From positions 176,072 through 240,071 of the forward strand of contig CAVTET010000004.1 in the NCBI GenBank assembly GCA_963733675.1: a stretch of 64,000 bases of DNA. Direction: 5' to 3'. The position numbers were made by a program, and so were the translations under genes. This DNA comes from an uncultured Methanosarcinaceae archaeon. GTDB lineage: Archaea; Halobacteriota; Methanosarcinia; Methanosarcinales; Methanosarcinaceae. Every line of letters begins with the position of its first letter. Position 1 is the stretch's first letter. The notes under the pieces are model-generated. The model made no database searches and had not been told where the DNA came from. It saw only the letters and a program-made list of their open reading frames with translations. Positions 1,094 to 62,214 of the stretch are shown here, one piece after another.

Positions 1094-1713
1094 GACAAAT
1101 TCGCAATCCAATTTAATCCGTTTAATGTGGATATTGGATTGATATAGAGGAGGGACAGAAGAGAGAGATTACTAACACTAAGAATTGGCTAGTTGGTGCT
1201 CAAAGATTTATATATTACAAATTAGGCATCAAAAAAGTATAATTTGCTAGCTATGAAAGGATCAGAGGGTCCTTATTTAAGTCCCAGCGAAAAAGGGAAT
1301 TGTCAAAAGCAATTTAAATAAGACCTTAAAAATGGGAATCCTTTGAAGATTAACTAGATTCTTGAAAATGAGATTGAAATCTAAAATAAAAGAATTTTTT
1401 TCCAAAGCTGAAAGCTGATTGAGGAGTTGAATCTATGACAGAAAAAAAGAAGGAAGAACCAAAGAAAGAAGAAGAAACTAAAGTAGAGCCCATACACCCC
1501 TCTGAAAAAGAAAGGGGCGGTAAAAAGAAGGGGCTTCTAGATACTTGTAAGTGAATAAGCTCCTATTTAGTAGTGGGGATGAGTATGTAATCAACTCAGA
1601 AAAAAATGAGCTCGCCCTTGTTTGGAAAATATACAGAGACTCATATGCGTATAGTATTCAGCAACTCACCTCACAATCTGAAAGTCAAACCGAATATTTA
1701 TGATTTAAAATAC

Positions 1714-1804
1714 AGAGGATTTCGAAAAACCCCTAAATTTCATCATATGCTTACAAATAGTATATGGATGACTCATGAAAATCGGAGGTTTCTCAAAATC
1801 CTCT
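1714..1804 (-). repeat. M1 palindromic MITE-like repeat, copy 1
   Basis: AGAGGATTTCGAAAAACCCC...GGAGGTTTCTCAAAATCCTCT. Coordinates +/-3 bp. Confidence 0.85.
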
Positions 1805-2290: not shown

Positions 2291-3091
2291 CTTCGGAAAA
2301 ACAGTGTCATTGACCATTTTTACTAAGATTCAATGAGTCGATTTCAGTGAGCTGATTTTAAATAACTATAGTCTATTGATTATGTTTTCTTTCCCCATCA
2401 ATTAATACTCAGAAGTGCCTATTGCATCAAAATAGATACAACAAACTTATTTTAGGTAGGCTATAATAGTATGATATTTGATTGGCAAAGTTGTTTATTT
2501 GATCCACTTTTTTATTTGTTGCAAAAAAGATGTATTTTTGCACTGATCCAACATTGCAACAATATTGAAAATTGGTTCGCCATCCTCAAACTTATATTCA
2601 CATACATTAAAAGTATTTTCAGTTACCTCAATGTGCTTTTCAAGAATTCCTTAATCCTATTTTTGGATTTAGCTTCGATTACATATTCTAGCCTTCCCTC
2701 ATCTTTTTTTGAGAGAACTCTCTGTCAAAAAATATCTATCCATATATAAAGGTTTCCAGCTTTACTCTCATTATTTCAATCCTTTAAAATAGGCATTTTC
2801 CGAAGGGGGCAAGTATTCTTTGCCTAAATAATTTAATACTTATGGAATGCTTAGAGTCACTAATCCAACGGCCTTTGTTAAGGGCTGAAGGGACCCCTTG
2901 AATCTTTTTATTTTTGTTTAACCCTCAAAATCATCGGCTTATTTGTAAAATGAGTTTATTTTTGTCACCATGTCAGAAGTGGTTTCAAATACCTCTAACC
3001 AGTAGTGATACACATTGAAATTAAAAAACTTTATCATAGCTACAGTCAGATCACCTATAACATAGCATTGGTGCCTAACTGTCGATACAAT

Positions 3092-3181
3092 ATAGAAAAT
3101 TTTGATAAACTTCGATTTTAACGAGTCATATATATACAAATTCTAAGAATAGGACAAAATTAATGGTTTCTCGAAATCCTC
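3092..3181 (+). repeat. M1 repeat, copy 2 (abuts IS200-like relic A)
   Basis: ATAGAAAATTTTGATAAAC...GGTTTCTCGAAATCCTC. Confidence 0.85.
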
Positions 3182-3665
3182 GAGATATCATATTGTTTTT
3201 TTTGCATGAATTATCGTGAAAAACTTCATTTAGGCAATGATATAATCAACGATTTTGAAATATATTCGCTTTAAAATGGTAAGAGATATCTTTTTGAGTT
3301 CGATGTAATCTCTACTGATGATGATCATTTACATCTTTTCATTGGTGCTGAACTAAAAGATTCTCTTTCAATAGTGATGCAGATTATAAAAAGTACCATA
3401 GCAAGAAAAGTTGTTAAAGAATACTATGAGATTAAAAAGCAGTTGTATTTGATAGGCTTTGGAGCGATTGATGTCACATTGAAACCGTAAGTGATGCTAT
3501 AACTTCAGATGTACCTAAAAATGACGTTCAAAACTAGGGCAAGCAGAAAGAAAAAGAAGTATATTAAGTAAATGAGAATATTTTATTTTGAATAATTTCC
3601 ACATATCCAGAGCAAGTGAGCTACTAAATCCATTGCTTGCAACGGAGCCGGATACCGAAATTTGA
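3182..3665 (+). pseudogene. IS200-like element relic A: Y1 (HUH) transposase TnpA pseudogene plus conserved 3' end
   Basis: Frame-hopping translation gives SRYHIVFF / CMNYREKLHLGNDIINDF...FEFDVISTDDDHLHLFIGAELKDSLSIVMQIIKSTIARK, with stops and shifts. It ends at TTTTGAATAAT, followed by the CCAGAGCAAG...TTGCTTGCAACGGAGCC motif. Confidence 0.75.
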
Positions 3666-6374: not shown

Positions 6375-6465
6375 AGAGGATTTTGATAAACCTCCAATTT
6401 TCACGAATAAAATATATACAATTTATAAGATATGACAAAATTAAAGAAATCATTAAATTCGTTCT
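6375..6465 (+). repeat. M1 repeat, copy 3 (right end degenerate)
   Basis: AGAGGATTTTGATAAACCTCCAATTTTCACGA... Confidence 0.8.
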
Positions 6466-6820: not shown

Positions 6821-6912
6821 ATAGAAAATTTAGATAAACCCCTAGATTTTATCATATTCTTATAAACAACATATAAATGATTAGTAAAAATCAGAGGTTT
6901 ATCGAGATCCTC
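6821..6912 (-). repeat. M1 repeat, copy 4
   Basis: ATAGAAAATTTAGATAAACCCC...GAGGTTTATCGAGATCCTC. Confidence 0.85.
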
Positions 6913-7171
6913 AAATGTATTAGGATATTGCCACTTTGAATGAGTGATATATGAGTTTTTTAATAAGATAATATTAGTACCTATTATCTCGACTCGCATA
7001 AGGACTCATGAAGGATATAATCCTATAAACAAGTTTATTTGGCCAATATTATTGAGGATTGCGTATTATGGATTTTCAGGTTTGTCGAGAATCTGGAGGT
7101 GGAAATCATATCTAGCTTTATTGTTTCTGTACTGCCTTTCATATTTGGAGGCTTTTATCCCTATATTTTTA

Positions 7172-7262
7172 AGAGGACCTGATAAACTCCTAAATTTTGT
7201 CATATGTATATAAGAGACATATAAATAATTCGTGAAAGTCAGATATTTATTGAAATAATCTT
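7172..7262 (-). repeat. M1 repeat, copy 5
   Basis: AGAGGACCTGATAAACTCC...CGTGAAAGTCAGATATTTATTGAAATAATC. Confidence 0.75.
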
Positions 7263-7949
7263 AAAGATTTTCCGACAGGTATTTCTCAGCAACCATTGGC
7301 ACATATGTTTATAAATTCCACATTTACTTCATGGTCTATGCAATAACTATAGACTGCTCTAGCTCTCAATCAGCCGGAGAAAGCAAAGTTGGGAAAGGAT
7401 TTATATCTCATGTTTGTAGACATAGAACTATTATAATTTTTTTGAAGACCCTATTCTCTTGATGCACTTCTAGAGAGTTGTGGCCACTCAAATCTCCTTA
7501 TTTATACTAGGAGCACAAATAGGATTGACATCTTCCATTACCTGGTTATCTATAGTTTTCAAATCTTCGATATTTATAGCCCCTCTTTAATCTCTACATC
7601 CTGCTAGGCATAAGATGGATGATTCCTCGACGTATATAGGAGTAGATACATTAGGATACTATGAAAAAGATGTAGTAACTCAATACTTCATCCAGTTAAC
7701 TGACACAGTATTGGTTATGTATCCATTGAAGTTTATTATCCGCATAGAAATTTTTTATTTGATTGACGTTCACTTTGAAGATAATAGTAATATTCACCCA
7801 TGAAAACGTTAATCATAATGATTTTTTTTATCCGTGGGTTTTCTCCTTCGACCCGGAATGAAATCAGAATGATACTGGGAATCTGATATTAAATTGGATA
7901 TACTGATACATGTGTTTTAATTTAAGATTAAAAGATACAAATATTTCTG

Positions 7950-10494: not shown

Positions 10495-10584
10495 ATAGGA
10501 TTTTGATAACCCTCTGAGTTTCACGAGTTATTTATTTACCATTTGTGATCAATGACCAAATTCAGGGGTTTATCTAAATTCTCT
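10495..10584 (+). repeat. M1 repeat, copy 6
   Basis: ATAGGATTTTGATAACCCTCTGAGTTTCACGAG...GGGGTTTATCTAAATTCTCT. Confidence 0.85.
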
Positions 10585-18308: not shown

Positions 18309-18496
18309 ATGGATTCTCCTTCTTGAATCGCTTATCTAGATGTCATTATGTCTATTGATTCGTCAGAAAAAATTTAAACATTAGACGATTTATTCAGGCA
18401 CCACTGCGATATTCACTACTGATCACAAGGCTTTAAAACATAGATTGTTAACAGTTAGACGTTCAATCCGTTTCTGTTCCTTTTTTGACTGATTGT

Positions 18497-18586
18497 AGAG
18501 AATTTCGATAAACCGATGAATTTCAAGAGTCATATATACTATTTATAAACCATATGACAAAGTTTTGGAGTTTATCTAAATTCTCT
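18497..18586 (+). repeat. M1 repeat, copy 8
   Basis: AGAGAATTTCGATAAACCGATGAATTTCAAGAG...GGAGTTTATCTAAATTCTCT. Confidence 0.85.
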
Positions 18587-32414: not shown

Positions 32415-32525
32415 GCATCCATAGTTACTCTCCAAAAAACTGGGTTTAAAGGTCCAAAGATTGAAAAACCAAAAAAGGATCAGGAGAGGCAGTAATTTCG
32501 ATTTGATGTAGTTCCGAGTGACTAT

Positions 32526-32585
32526 TGAGGATTAAAATAAATCTCTGATTTTCACGAGTCATTTGAGAATTTCGATAAACTCTAT
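32526..32585 (+). repeat. M1 repeat, copy 11 (a truncated left half followed by a second left terminus)
   Basis: TGAGGATTAAAATAAATCTCTGATTTTCACGAGTCATT, then GAGAATTTCGATAAACTC. Confidence 0.7.
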
Positions 32586-33583
32586 CCATTTGACATTGGA
32601 AAGCTTAAGTCTTTAACAATAATTTTTACTCATGAAAAATTTTACTTATTTTGCTCTTAAAGAAGAATGTAAATATTTTCAGCCAGTTGGAACTAAATTT
32701 GCTGAAATCGATTCCTTAATTCCTTGAAAATCTTTCAGTATCATTTTTGAGTTTTTTTGTCTATGTTTTCGATAACTTGATCATTGCATTTTATACAAAA
32801 ATATATCGTATTTGACCAATTACATCCCAGTAAATGCAAAAAAGTATTCTGAAGTACAGAAATATATTAAGTATATTTTGATGCAGGTTAAGTATAAATT
32901 AATTAATTGTTATATGACGTCTGGTTGGTTTGTCAGAAATTGGATAACGGATTTGAAATAGTATAGTAAACTTTAAAAGTTGGCGCCAGAAATTTTATTA
33001 CCACCTAACATAACACTTTACTGGCGCTACTTTCACAATCACCATGGATGACACTTCAATAAAACTATAAATAAAAATACTAATAGAATAATCATTGTCT
33101 ATTAAATTTAATTTATTTTTTGCATCATTAAATTATATAATAACTTTTTGGCTTTTTAACATAATAATGGCCTTGCTTGCGACTAACTATTTTCTGTTTA
33201 TCAGTTAATGTGATACAGCTGATCTTATGTGTTAAAAAGTTGATTTTCTTGGCTGCAGTTGATCTGATACCTCAACCTGCCGGCAAGTCAACTGCAAGGT
33301 ACGGGAATACCTATGAATTATAACTAGATTTAAAGTATTCTATATCTTTTACATATTGTTGCATATATACTACTTAGTACTAACTTAAACTAATTTATGA
33401 AATTTCTGTGGTCTGATCTTTTATATTAGAAGTGGATCTGTCCTCCCTGCCCTTTTTGAAAAACCGGATTGAATTTTATTATAATCATATAAATATGAAT
33501 AGATCAAATTCCCATAAATGCATAGTTTTTGTGTTAAAAGCTCTGAATTTTCGAAGTTACATCCAGAATAAAAAAACATTGAA

Positions 33584-33676
33584 GATCTGTTACTAATGGA
33601 GTTTATGGGACTCCTAAAACATATGGAGTTCATGGAACACTTGGAACTAATTAGCTTATACCACGATCATAAACAG
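33584..33676 (-). repeat. T1 small TIR-bearing element, copy 1
   Basis: Its reverse complement matches 36414-36495 (TGATCGTGG-TAAG-TAATTAGTTCCAAGT...GAGTCCCATAA-TCCAT-AGTAA-AGATC) with a ~22-bp insertion. Confidence 0.7.
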
Positions 33677-33767
33677 AAAACAATGAAAAAATAGTTATAT
33701 AATTTTAGCTATGTATTAAAAATTTTATGAAGTGCGGTTGATTCTATATCTTTTTCTTCCCGATGAA

Positions 33768-34287
33768 AAACAGGAATTGATCAGTCTGTTAGAAGATAGA
33801 GTTAAAGAGGAGGGGAAAATAAGCTTTAAAGTATTGGGTTGATTATCTTGCTAACTGTATACTCAATATTATATTGTTGTTAACTTCCTGTTAATAGATG
33901 GATTCTCTAGATGTAGTTTTAAAAAATTGGTCACCTAATTCCGAGGCCAATAATGACATTCTTTAAGGTCATCAATATGTCCCATTTCTTTTTTGAGTCT
34001 TCTGCATTACTTATCATTAATTATAATGAAGGACAAAATAATAAGTACCGCAGAAGACTCAAAAAAGAAATGGGACATATTGATGACCTTAAAGAATGTC
34101 ATTATTGGCCTCGGAATTAGGTGACCAATTTTTTAAAACTACATCTAGAGAATCCATCTATTAACAGGAAGTTAACAACAATATAATATTGAGTATACAG
34201 TTAGCAAGATAATCAACCCAATACTTTAAAGCTTATTTTCCCCTCCTCTTTAACTCTATCTTCTAACAGACTGATCAATTCCTGTTT
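33768..34287. repeat. exact 238-bp inverted repeat (arms 33768-34005 and 34050-34287) with a 44-bp spacer
   Basis: Base-by-base reading shows the two arms are perfect reverse complements. After a 2-nt mismatch, another 7 bp pair (34008-14 with 34041-47), leaving a ~26-nt apical loop. Confidence 0.9.
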
Positions 34288-34321
34288 ACAGTATGATACT
34301 TAACTTTTGTCTAATTTTCAC

Positions 34322-34375
34322 GATTATAATGCCGAATGCCCACTGCTTCAGATGTGGGTGATCTACCTTATAATC
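34322..34375. repeat. hairpin element H-A
   Basis: Outer stem GATTATAA/TTATAATC, inner stem CCCAC/GTGGG, loop TGCTTCAGAT. Preceded by AATTTTCAC. Confidence 0.7.
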
Positions 34376-34669
34376 ATAGCAAAATAGATCGCAAGTGAAT
34401 TTATTGATTTTACCTATGTGTTTTTAATATTTTTTTTGCATTTATTGGAATTTCCTATAATATACGAAGTGATCAAGTTTACAGATACATAGACAATAAT
34501 CTGGTTCTTCGCTATTTTGTGTGAATTAAAATTAATTATCCAGTAAAGAAGTTATGACACCAACGTGATTAATGCTCTAGGAAAAGATAATGTTAGATTC
34601 TGATGACTCCACAAATAGCAACAACAATTCTTAATATTTATTTGTTTTTTGATTGCAAAAAATTTTATG

Positions 34670-34762
34670 CGAAGTTATTTTTTGTTTAGAAACTATTTTT
34701 CTATGCAAGATTATGTTTTATTTAGAAACTATTTTTCATATAATTAATTTAAAATAACTTCG
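34670..34762. repeat. 12-bp inverted repeats bracketing two 16-bp direct repeats
   Basis: CGAAGTTATTTT (34670-81) and AAAATAACTTCG (34751-62). TTTAGAAACTATTTTT occurs at 34685-700 and 34721-36. A third, related TTGTTTAGAAACTAT lies at 36375-89. Confidence 0.75.
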
Positions 34763-34879
34763 AAGATAATTATGTATTGTATCGTATCGTATCACTGGTA
34801 TCACAGAACGAACAGATCAATAAGAGTGAAAAGTCACAGCTACAGTAGGACTAAAAAGCAGAGTAGAATAGCTTGGAGG

Positions 34880-34921
34880 ACGTTGTCTTATTTCGAATTA
34901 ACGTTGTCTTATTTCGAATTA
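34880..34921. repeat. perfect tandem duplication, 2 x 21 bp
   Basis: ACGTTGTCTTATTTCGAATTA repeated twice with no spacer. Confidence 0.9.
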
Positions 34922-35228
34922 AATTTATGACTTGTGATATATATTCGAAGTAACTGGATCTGAAGAGACAGTACAGACAACTCTTCCAAGTTTCCATCCA
35001 ATCTTTTTTAATGCGCTCTATTTGGTAAAATGCATAATTTATGCCACAACAAATATGCATATTCTCAACGTCAATTTTCCATTATAATATTTTTCACTAT
35101 TAAAACCTAACTCACAAGCTTAAAAGTATAGAGAAACGCAGAGTCATTTGAATTTAAACAAATTATTTTTCCAGCTCAATTTGCTTTTCTGTTCACAAGT
35201 CTTAATACTAAATGTGATTTCATTTTCA

Positions 35229-35286
35229 CGATTATTAATATAGGATAACCACTGCGTTAGATGTGGTTATCCTATATTAATAATCG
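35229..35286. repeat. hairpin element H-B (24-bp perfect stem, 10-nt loop)
   Basis: CGATTATTAATATAGGATAACCAC - TGCGTTAGAT - GTGGTTATCCTATATTAATAATCG. Preceded by CATTTTCAC. Confidence 0.85.
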
Positions 35287-35884
35287 CGATACACAATATA
35301 GCCCACTTAGTCCATATCGATTTTATAAAATTTTCATAACTTCAATACATTTGACTATATTCTTTTTTAAAATTTTCATATCATTAATTTGAGCTTTCCA
35401 ACGATTGAACTGTATATTCCTTCCAAATAATCTCTACTTATCGAACTTGATTGTTCAAAGCATTAATTCCGTCATTTGCTACAGTAATCAGTATCTTCCC
35501 GCCTGTTAACTAAACATTAAAAAATCTTTAACATGGGAATCATTAGGATTATCGGGCTTCATTACATTGATTGAAACAGTAAATTTCATAAATTAGGAAA
35601 TTGGTAAATTCAGATTTGTTCCATGACCCAAGAACACGACCTGAATTTGATATGAAATAAACATATGTTGCTTCTTAGAAAGAACTCTATGCTAAATTTA
35701 GGAAATTATCTGGAAATAATAAAAACATCATTAATATCAAATTGTTGTTCAAAATTAAAATATTTTGTTCAGTAGTAACTTTTATTCCAAACCTATTTTT
35801 ACAAAATTGATTAAAAATAATTTAGGAATTTGGTTACATTTCAACAAAAATTAAGAGTTCCAAAGCAGAAAAGGAGATCGAATA

Positions 35885-36312
35885 AGGGCAACTTTAAAAT
35901 TTCTGAAGTTTGACACCGATGATGGTGCAGAAAATAATTTGAATTGATCGCGGGTTTCAGAAAGGAGTAATTGATTAAATTGCACGATGCAGCAATAGCC
36001 ACCTGGCCTATTGGGAAAAAACCAAAACCAAAGCATTTGCCTGATTTCCTTTATTCCTTTATTTGGCCTGGTCGCCGGGGCCACAATAGGTGCATTTGCC
36101 GGTTCCATGATCTACCTGGGTATTAATGAAGATTTCATAATATCGATCCGTAAAAAATGACTGAAGGAACTTCAACTCTTTTTCTGATGACTAGCGATGC
36201 CGTTGAGGATAGGATAGTAGAAGCTATGAAACAATCCAAGTTTGAAATTATTGCTATCAACCTAGCCAAGGAAGAAGAGGCCAAACTGCATGCAGTCTTT
36301 GCTGAAGAATAA
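35885..36312 (+). pseudogene. DUF1269-like membrane protein remnant
   Basis: Fragments in different frames: LIKLHDAAIATWPIGKKPKPK; GLVAGATIGAFAGSMIYLGINEDFIISIRKK; TEGTSTLFLMTSDAVEDRIVEAMKQSKFEIIAINLAKEEEAKLHAVFAEE-stop (TAA 36310-12). Confidence 0.55.
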
Positions 36313-36413
36313 AATTCGCCGAAAAAGAAATCAGTTTCTACCAGAGAGTTAACTTTCTGAAATCCACTTTAGTTTTGTTTAGAAACTATATAATTATCTT
36401 TTTTCTAATTTTT

Positions 36414-36495
36414 CTATTTCTGATCGTGGCCTAAGATAATTAGTTCCAAGTTTTCTGCGAGTCCCATAAGTCCATGAGTAATAGATCAGAAATAG
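36414..36495 (+). repeat. T1 small TIR-bearing element, copy 2
   Basis: 12-bp terminal inverted repeats CTATTTCTGATC / GATCAGAAATAG flanking ~58 bp. Confidence 0.75.
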
Positions 36496-36589
36496 TTTCT
36501 TATTCTATATGGAACTTTGGAAATTCAGAGATTTTAGTCAAAAACTATGCATCAAAGATGTCATAAAAACACATGTTTTGTCAGCCTTA

Positions 36590-36790
36590 CCAAGATTCTA
36601 CATCCTACTATATTTTACAGAACTTTTGGTACACTTCCGATGTAATTAAAAAATATGTAGAAAATCATGATAACCAAGAAGAAAAAAAGCATATAAACAA
36701 ATTAAAAAAAATCTTATTTTGAATAATTTTATTCATATCCCGAGCAATAGCATACACATTTACTTGCAGCGGGTGCCCCACATAAATCTA
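36590..36790 (+). pseudogene. IS200-like element relic C (3' portion only)
   Basis: SDVIKKYVENHDNQEEKKHINKLKKILF-stop, followed by TTGAATAAT...CCCGAGCAAT...TTACTTGCAGCGGGTGCC. Confidence 0.6.
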
Positions 36791-36856
36791 TATTAAATTG
36801 GAAGAAAAGATTTTAAAAGCTCCTGAAGAGAAAAAATATAATCAAGTCTAAATCCC

Positions 36857-43390: not shown

Positions 43391-43482
43391 AGAGGATCAT
43401 CGATAAACTTTTGATTTTCATGAATCATTTATACACTATTTATAAACATATAGCGAAATTTATGGGTTTATCGAAATCCTCT
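43391..43482 (+). repeat. M1 repeat, copy 12
   Basis: AGAGGATCATCGATAAACTTTTGATTTTCATGA...GGGTTTATCGAAATCCTCT. Confidence 0.88.
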
Positions 43483-53300: not shown

Positions 53301-53589
53301 ATAACTAATTTTAATAAACGTCTCTAAATTTCAGTATTAAAGAGTTTAAGTCTCTTAGCATTAATTTTAATTCATCCAAAATTTCACTAATTTTGCTCTT
53401 AAAAAACAGTAGGAACTTCTTCAATTAATAATGGACAAATTTGATGAAATTGATCCCTTAATCGATTGAAAATATTTTCGGATCATTTTTTAATCCATTA
53501 TACTTAACAAAACCGTTCTTCACTAAATTATTTGTATTTTAAGCTACTTTTCCACTATAAAAGGGAACTAATTCATGCAAAATATGGTA

Positions 53590-61708: not shown

Positions 61709-61952
61709 ATAAAATTATCCTAAATTATTTATTATGTTCTAATTAACCTTAGAATTCATTGCTTTCCCATCATTTATTGGCTCTCGCTATTTCGAGTAGG
61801 CAATATATTGTGGTGTCCGCTTTAACTATAAATTCAAAGTCAAATTTTGGTGTACTGCTTATAATTAGATTCTTCGGATTGTGAAATATATCTACTTTAG
61901 AACTTATTGAGATTTGTGATTTCAAAGAAAATTGTGTACGCTGCATAATTTA

Positions 61953-62041
61953 TGAGGGTTTCGATAAACTCATTAATTAAGTCATATGCTTATAAATTGC
62001 ATGTAAATGACTAGTGAAAATCAGAGGTTGATCGAGACTCT
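61953..62041 (-). repeat. M1 repeat, copy 14
   Basis: TGAGGGTTTCGATAAACTC...CAGAGGTTGATCGAGACTCT. Confidence 0.8.
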
Positions 62042-62214
62042 TAATAGTCATTTCCTTGATTGTGGGTGCAATACATATAATATTTGAAAACATTAGTTTG
62101 TGGAATACCACATTCAAGCTCGATATCATCTATTTTGTGTAGTCATCTTCAACTGAACAATTGTTCTCAACCCACAAAAACAGAGAAAAGCCATTTCTTT
62201 TAGTTTTAGGGATT

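Follow-up and report, generated by a model that had tools for sequence, protein, structure and literature searches.

Results

The window analysed here is a 64-kb stretch of DNA from an uncultured Methanosarcina whose ABC-2 permease is 90–91% identical to that of the nearest sister species and 76–78% identical to those of cultured species. Within the window, a long foldback lies in a 4.4-kb gap (32415–36856) where two convergent gene sets face each other with their 3′ ends. The set on the + strand includes arginyl-tRNA synthetase, a MarR regulator, an ABC ATPase and an ABC-2 permease; the set on the − strand includes the small and large subunits of a NiFe hydrogenase (vht), a 258-aa protein and a HycI-type hydrogenase maturation protease. 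The initial annotation had described the site as a gene-free island, which agrees with this arrangement; the sole annotated gene within the gap is a 51-aa ORF at 36157–36312 (+), a gene call in related assemblies that has a Pfam match to DUF1269. A tRNA scan of the 64-kb window returned none, and a promoter/terminator scan gave counts no higher than those for shuffles, with bacterial-type models that are uninformative for an archaeon.

Base-by-base comparison of the left arm (the A module; 33768–34005, − strand) with the right arm (34050–34287, + strand) showed that the two are exact reverse complements over 238 bp. Moving inwards, two mismatches are followed by seven pairs, one mismatch and three further pairs, and a repeat finder reported 251-nt arms (33768–34018 and 34037–34287; 99%) around an 18-nt centre. 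The perfect inverted repeat first described at this site is therefore borne out by both approaches, and the seven further base pairs and ~26-nt loop attributed to it represent the same pairing as the 251-nt arms, counted more conservatively. Directly beyond both outer edges of the arms, complementarity is at random level. The 14-mers of the arm do not recur elsewhere in the 64-kb window, and BLAST found no second copy of the arm there; the earlier statement that the arm occurs nowhere else in the window is thus correct but misleading, since related genomes contain many copies of the dispersed family of which the arm is a member. Across the centre of the foldback, the longest ORF has 55 codons (33953–34120) rather than the 47 originally counted; among 5.8 billion proteins searched, its only match was to itself. 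When folded as single-stranded RNA, the foldback has a predicted energy of −425 kcal/mol (z = −52 relative to shuffles).

The names of the contigs point to long-read assembly, and long reads can be foldback chimeras; we therefore considered whether a chimera of this type, or polishing that made similar arms look identical, could account for the structure. Using the flanking proteins to locate the foldback locus in other assemblies, we found the whole foldback, with the same unique flanks, in three separately assembled metagenome samples (ERZ25039528, ERZ25039593 and ERZ25039473). The structure, the junction and both unique flanks agree in all three; the 4.4-kb gap is 99.95–100% identical among them, all foldback-bearing assemblies representing one nearly clonal population. 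Inside the foldback, the assemblies differ only in a homopolymer T4A6 run, which is longer by one A in one of them. A short-read contig from an unrelated NCBI metagenome assembly (JBLFLA010437102.1) is an exact match over the outer 125 nt of the left arm and ends there, at the position where a de Bruijn graph with k≈127 would be expected to break on meeting a true inverted repeat. Moreover, the flanks of the foldback are not reverse complements of each other, indicating that it is not a foldback chimera. We conclude that an artefact of assembly or polishing, which the initial annotation had listed among three possible reasons for the identity of the arms, is effectively excluded, and we consider it extremely unlikely. 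No intermediate with diverged arms was found in a close relative; the nearest other species are ~91–92% identical in their genes.

Sequence related to the arm is present in sister-species loci at about 76% identity. Four related Methanosarcina MAGs contain the most conserved block of the family, GAAGNTAACAACNATANAATATTG, at a total of 14 loci, of which one MAG has seven and another has four; 44 further loci are in peat and bog metagenomes. One of the 59 matches to this pattern was a chance bacterial match, leaving 58 family loci, or about 60 copies; the same search found no family copies in viral contigs. We found no named Methanosarcina family in the literature that matches the repeat. Family copies are old (74–89% identical), with a median pairwise identity of 82.9% for the A module. 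With family coordinates mapped onto a reference copy (L031 6700–7800), many copies run from position ~287 to ~893/894, corresponding to a unit of about 610 bp. Alternative ends are found at ~630–632 and ~686–689, and a longer form spans positions 121–981. Full units have imperfect terminal inverted repeats, (A)TGCAnAnnTTTTAC… on the left and …AAAAACTGTGCAT on the right, with about 14–15 of 22 positions complementary.

[quoted passage not shown] However, neither presence/absence polymorphism nor near-identical copies, either of which would show mobility, were seen among the fetched loci, a biased set. All orthologous pairs were filled and none of the 75 loci was an empty site, but these loci were fetched because they bear the repeat. 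There was likewise no clean empty site at the vht locus, and no common direct repeat that could represent a target-site duplication outside the termini of the copies inspected. We conclude that the family is MITE-like rather than a proven MITE.

Between species, orthologous copies diverge at least as fast as the sequences that flank them. Family copies thus behave as neutral DNA, and the identity of the arms is unlikely to be due to selection on sequence. Conservation across the A module is very uneven, with 61 invariant columns in an alignment of 27 representatives versus 9.5 expected; short palindromes (AACAATAtttTATTGTT and GGGCAATA…TATTGCCC) are among the conserved parts. The family linker has a conserved TATA-like TTATATAA box, and a stem and T-run are found at the inner end of the A module.

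The left arm is part of a near-complete family unit (33518–34016, − strand) that comprises the A module, linker, X module and natural outer terminus. This left copy is inverted relative to the family reference, has lost its inner end from about family position 368, and is collinear over ~510 bp with single copies elsewhere (L020 1621–2131, L028 4748–4249, L030 69–600 and L031 7078–7592). Its natural terminus is the family terminal motif ATGCAtAGTTTTTGTGtTAAAAgC at 33518–33541, the single occurrence of that motif in the 64-kb window. The linker (33706–33767, − strand) abuts the arm, and its collinearity with the family consensus begins at the very first base beyond it. The TATA-like TTATATAA is located at 33697–33704 (+), on the border of X module and linker, and might be a promoter. 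The X module itself (33518–33705, − strand) has 9-nt tandem repeats, and has an old inverted paralogue at 36383–36552, within a solo X-module fragment (36383–36571, + strand) that is 72% identical to 33518–33705.

An apparent 32-codon ORF in the X module (33598–33696, + strand; MEFMGLLKHMEFMEHLELISLYHDHKQKTMKK) has related ORFs in most copies, with a recurring motif, …MEHLELISPNNHHK*, and an ending of the form …MEHLELIS(P/L)NNH(H/R)K. We do not regard this small ORF as a gene, since the 9-nt tandem array leaves all frames open and coding cannot be inferred. We also rejected an ORF in the A module (VWLILYLFLPNEK…) that is interrupted by stops and indels in many copies; there is no conserved A-module ORF.

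The right arm belongs to an ‘A-only’ family member (34013–34287, + strand; family positions ~340–630) whose start coincides with the CATTAATT boundary shared by other A-type copies. Adjacent to it is the R flank, a unique sequence (34288–35040, + strand). Collinearity with the orthologous interval in sister species extends over this flank and past the outer edge of the arm: positions 34059–35040 of the window form one alignment block with L007 11518–12426, L016 7837–8753 and related loci, at 77–80% identity. Sister species have one copy of the repeat at the orthologous site (L007–L010, L025 and L016), in the orientation of the right arm and collinear with the R flank, and the right copy is the positional orthologue of that single copy. 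Judged by this collinearity, the right copy is the ancestral resident of the locus.

The R flank contains two tandem repeats, one of a 36-nt unit present twice with 83–89% identity (34666–34737) and one of a 21-nt unit present twice without differences (34880–34922). Beyond it is a fragment (35062–35244, − strand) that is homologous to the module found to the left of long-form family units (family positions 98–276). A 64-nt imperfect hairpin at 35226–35289 (within 35055–35284) is 84% self-complementary and has sub-threshold, miRNA-like Rfam matches; the module that holds it is homologous to sequence left of long-form units and is partly repeated at 34314–34357.

The central 44 bp of the foldback (34006–34049) include the junction between the copies, the unpaired centre and the innermost homologous bases, three of which still differ. 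The two copies meet at 34006–34017, where a shared CATTA and the tandem CATTAcTTAT/CATTAaTTAT fit both. The family homology of the left copy ends at about 34016, and 34013–34049 matches the family consensus (…CATTAATTtcAAT·AAGGACAAAATgATAAG…) only as a continuation of the right copy; the unpaired 18-nt centre is at 34019–34036. By this match to the consensus, the loop consists of ~28 extra family bases kept by the right copy. At the other end, the outer edge of the perfect repeat is the point at which the family linker and the R flank diverge, and it is also a recurrent family end.

The gap between the ABC-2 permease and vht genes is rearranged differently in every species examined. Comparing orthologous intervals, a check that had been suggested to establish whether one arm, both or neither is present in relatives, gave a single copy in the sister species described above but an inverted pair of the same repeat in the sister species MFD01828. 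The members of this pair, − then +, are 7.2 kb apart (L021 7503–7849 and L031 7045–7391; contig_28173 of MFD01828.bin.2.33). Over 347 bp their identity is 97.7%, and in the central ~300 bp they differ at three positions (about 99% identity), a pattern that supports homogenisation in a second case. Between them are a TetR-like fragment and small ORFs only; there is no transposase or recombinase inside the pair. We considered MFD01828 as a candidate empty site for the right copy and rejected it, since 3 kb of unrelated DNA are found there.

In another relative, represented in JGI peat metagenomes, the sequence downstream of the ABC-2 permease has IS-related genes (DUF772, Y1_Tnp; L013 11148–12107 and L015 5829–6029), and mobile DNA seems to accumulate in the gap downstream of this gene. 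Elsewhere in the window, 53307–53513 is a small repeated module that is 73–77% similar to sequence just downstream of the ABC-2 permease of relatives (L016 6206–6410; L021 3637–3820). A separate dispersed repeat of ~90–130 bp has at least nine copies in the window (1713–1804, 3091–3191, 6375–6442, 6828–6912, 7165–7265, 10497–10584, 18491–18586, 43391–43482 and 61948–62073) that are 73–82% identical to L021 1435–1566; this is probably another MITE-like family.

We compared divergence between the arms with divergence in the family. The arms differ at 0 of 238 bp, whereas 3 of the innermost ~16 homologous bases differ (Fisher p = 2 × 10^−4), a contrast in which the inner 16 bp contribute few bases and their homology is assigned via alignment to the family consensus. 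The median divergence of the family is 17%, and the arms differ from their positional orthologues by 24%; at family divergence, the probability of observing no differences in 238 bp is 4 × 10^−20. The residual divergence of the innermost bases is at the level typical of the family. An identical outer stretch with a diverged inner stretch is the signature of a conversion tract that reaches the outer end of homology. Each copy also has family sequence that is absent from the other, with ~28 loop bases found only in the right copy and the linker and X module found only in the left copy, and each has a different collinear flank; hence, neither arm arose simply as a fresh copy of its partner. A neighbour-joining tree places both arms together on a long branch, apart from the clade of positional orthologues.

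We conclude that the foldback most likely consists of two old paralogous copies of a MITE-like repeat, arranged head-to-head, whose arms have been homogenised by gene conversion, a reading to which we assign a probability of roughly 0.7. Active homogenisation is thus the favoured choice among the three explanations originally offered, whereas very recent formation by simple inverted duplication is contradicted by the collinearity of each arm with a different, independently attested outer flank. At 23 clade-specific sites, the arms have the family state at 16 and the clade state at 2, which suggests that the left copy overwrote the right copy; this is a weak test, since 10 of the sites are poorly aligned and some of the clade changes may post-date the split from the lineage of the window. 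The direction of conversion was therefore probably from the left copy to the right copy, as far as these sites can tell.

We found no evidence that the repeat encodes a structured RNA. Rfam searches of the foldback region gave only generic, plant-miRNA-like hairpin matches, all below the gathering score, and searches of three single-copy loci gave nothing at the repeat. RNAalifold analysis of 15 copies found no covariation (term +0.45; compensatory pairs 2/51). We therefore dropped a structured-RNA gene as a candidate. Near a family copy in a sister MAG, L028 2035–2128 (−) has a sub-threshold match to PYLIS_5, a pyrrolysine insertion sequence element of a transposase (42 bits versus a gathering score of 60).

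Discussion

For the manner in which the foldback formed, we infer the mechanism of conversion, its direction and the route by which the copies became adjacent. The left copy, in opposite orientation and truncated at its inner end, meets the right copy's natural end at a few bases of microhomology; a deletion between inverted copies that were once further apart, closed by such a join, is a plausible way of bringing them together. Once the copies were adjacent, non-reciprocal recombination could have overwritten one arm with the other, either by gene conversion or by template switching across the hairpin, both of which would be associated with breakage or replication. The converted tract would then comprise the 238 bp up to the exact end of homology, with the innermost ~16 bp left unconverted.

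Perfectly identical arms are also what would be expected if template switching or fold-back priming at an inverted microhomology had recently copied one arm de novo, in which case identity would simply reflect youth, and the junction has the microhomology and small quasi-palindrome (CATTA...TAATG; tandem CATTAcTTAT/CATTAaTTAT) that are the classic signature of this process. We nevertheless consider this unlikely. The left arm continues unbroken into ~250 bp of linker, X module and terminus, as independent copies do, and the right arm passes equally unbroken into its orthologous flank, R. Had an arm been copied, its end would have to coincide by chance with the exact point at which pre-existing family sequence resumes in register, and the three innermost differences are unexpected in a fresh copy. 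A mobile element of the foldback or long-TIR type, or a composite element with inverted copies at its ends, as in MFD01828, that has since collapsed to a remnant, would fit with the MITE-like origin of the arms. In MFD01828, the copies at this locus have the same orientations (− then +) around 7.2 kb, and deletion of the interior would yield a foldback. However, none of the 58 other family loci has a second, closely spaced inverted copy, and there is no second copy of the foldback among the 59 pattern-matching loci. Moreover, the outer edges (…GATGAAAA | … | TTACAGTA…) lack a target-site duplication and are internal points of longer homologies rather than boundaries of an insertion, and the MFD01828 interior has no transposase or recombinase and has flanks that are arranged differently. 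We conclude that mobility of the foldback as a unit, which the initial annotation had suggested as a possibility, is not supported, and that an origin of this kind is very improbable.

We also considered whether the foldback might be a functional unit maintained by selection, either as the source of a ~250-bp hairpin RNA transcribed from the TATA-like box in the linker and reading through the T-run at 33985–33997, or as a site recognised by a protein or as a cruciform. The conserved TTATATAA box, the stem and T-run at the inner end of the A module, the extreme stability of the predicted hairpin, and the uneven conservation, with far more invariant columns than expected, would all be consistent with function. 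However, the family alignment has no covariation and the repeat has no Rfam family, orthologous copies evolve at the speed of their flanks, only one foldback is found among the 59 pattern-matching loci, and the right arm lacks the linker promoter; hence, we regard selection for function as quite unlikely. A more speculative version, to which we give equally little credence, is that the family as a whole may be a functional transcription unit, with a TATA-like box, a ~260-nt non-coding RNA, and a stem and T-run. The pair might then be kept perfect through a ~240-bp double-stranded hairpin RNA produced by read-through, or as a recombination or cruciform site in a polyploid, tolerant archaeon. 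If true, this would be the first natural long-hairpin RNA locus in Methanosarcina.

Homogenisation of paired repeat copies, the reading that we prefer, has well-described parallels. Gene conversion from arm to arm keeps inverted repeats identical in human Y-chromosome palindromes, plastid inverted repeats and the long inverted repeats of C. elegans (PMC1803023). As in those systems, the arms of the foldback are far closer to each other than to their orthologues or paralogues, the identity stops sharply at the ends of homology, and a second lineage has the same concerted pattern. In contrast, the foldback measures hundreds of bp rather than kb to Mb, is in an archaeal host, has arms that are dispersed repeat copies rather than a duplicated block of genes, and reflects one inferable conversion tract rather than ongoing maintenance. 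Correction of quasi-palindromes occurs in bacteria. In template-switch homogenisation, imperfect inverted repeats are perfected by copying of one arm across the hairpin (PMC8604942); the foldback is similar in having a short spacer, but its tract is 238 bp, whereas the arms in described cases of template switching are tens of bp, and the bases nearest to its loop are uncorrected.

The genomes of Methanosarcina are reported to be rich in MITEs (PMC11602168). Like prokaryotic MITEs, the family described here is ~610 bp long, non-coding, multi-copy and intergenic, with discrete recurrent ends and imperfect TIRs, and is found in one clade. In contrast to those elements, no target-site duplication, empty site or autonomous partner was found for it in the fetched loci or the window, and its copies are old and modular, with several end points. 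Eukaryotic foldback (FB) transposons also have long inverted arms and a short centre, but they are multi-copy, with arms composed of tandem sub-repeats and with target-site duplications, whereas the foldback occupies one locus and combines two copies that differ in their flanks.

In E. coli, long palindromes are processed by SbcCD, a nuclease of the Mre11-Rad50 type, and central asymmetry stabilises them. The foldback, a perfect inverted repeat of >200 bp in a prokaryotic chromosome, resembles these palindromes as an expected hairpin or cruciform substrate. It differs from them in its 44-bp imperfect centre, which should hinder hairpin nucleation and by analogy probably helps the structure to survive.

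We conclude that, rather than representing a new kind of element, the foldback illustrates well, on a small scale and in an archaeon, a process that is already known. Structures such as this break short-read assemblies exactly at sites of this kind, and are not to be over-read as new mobile elements or RNA genes. The repeat family to which the arms belong had not been named before; it is restricted to one clade and is strewn across the gaps that separate convergent operons in peat-soil Methanosarcina. The locus offers a clean and datable example, in an archaeon, of repeat-family copies whose arms have been homogenised with each other, and a sister species follows the same trend; it also shows that the chromosome of a natural Methanosarcina can retain a long and perfect near-palindrome.
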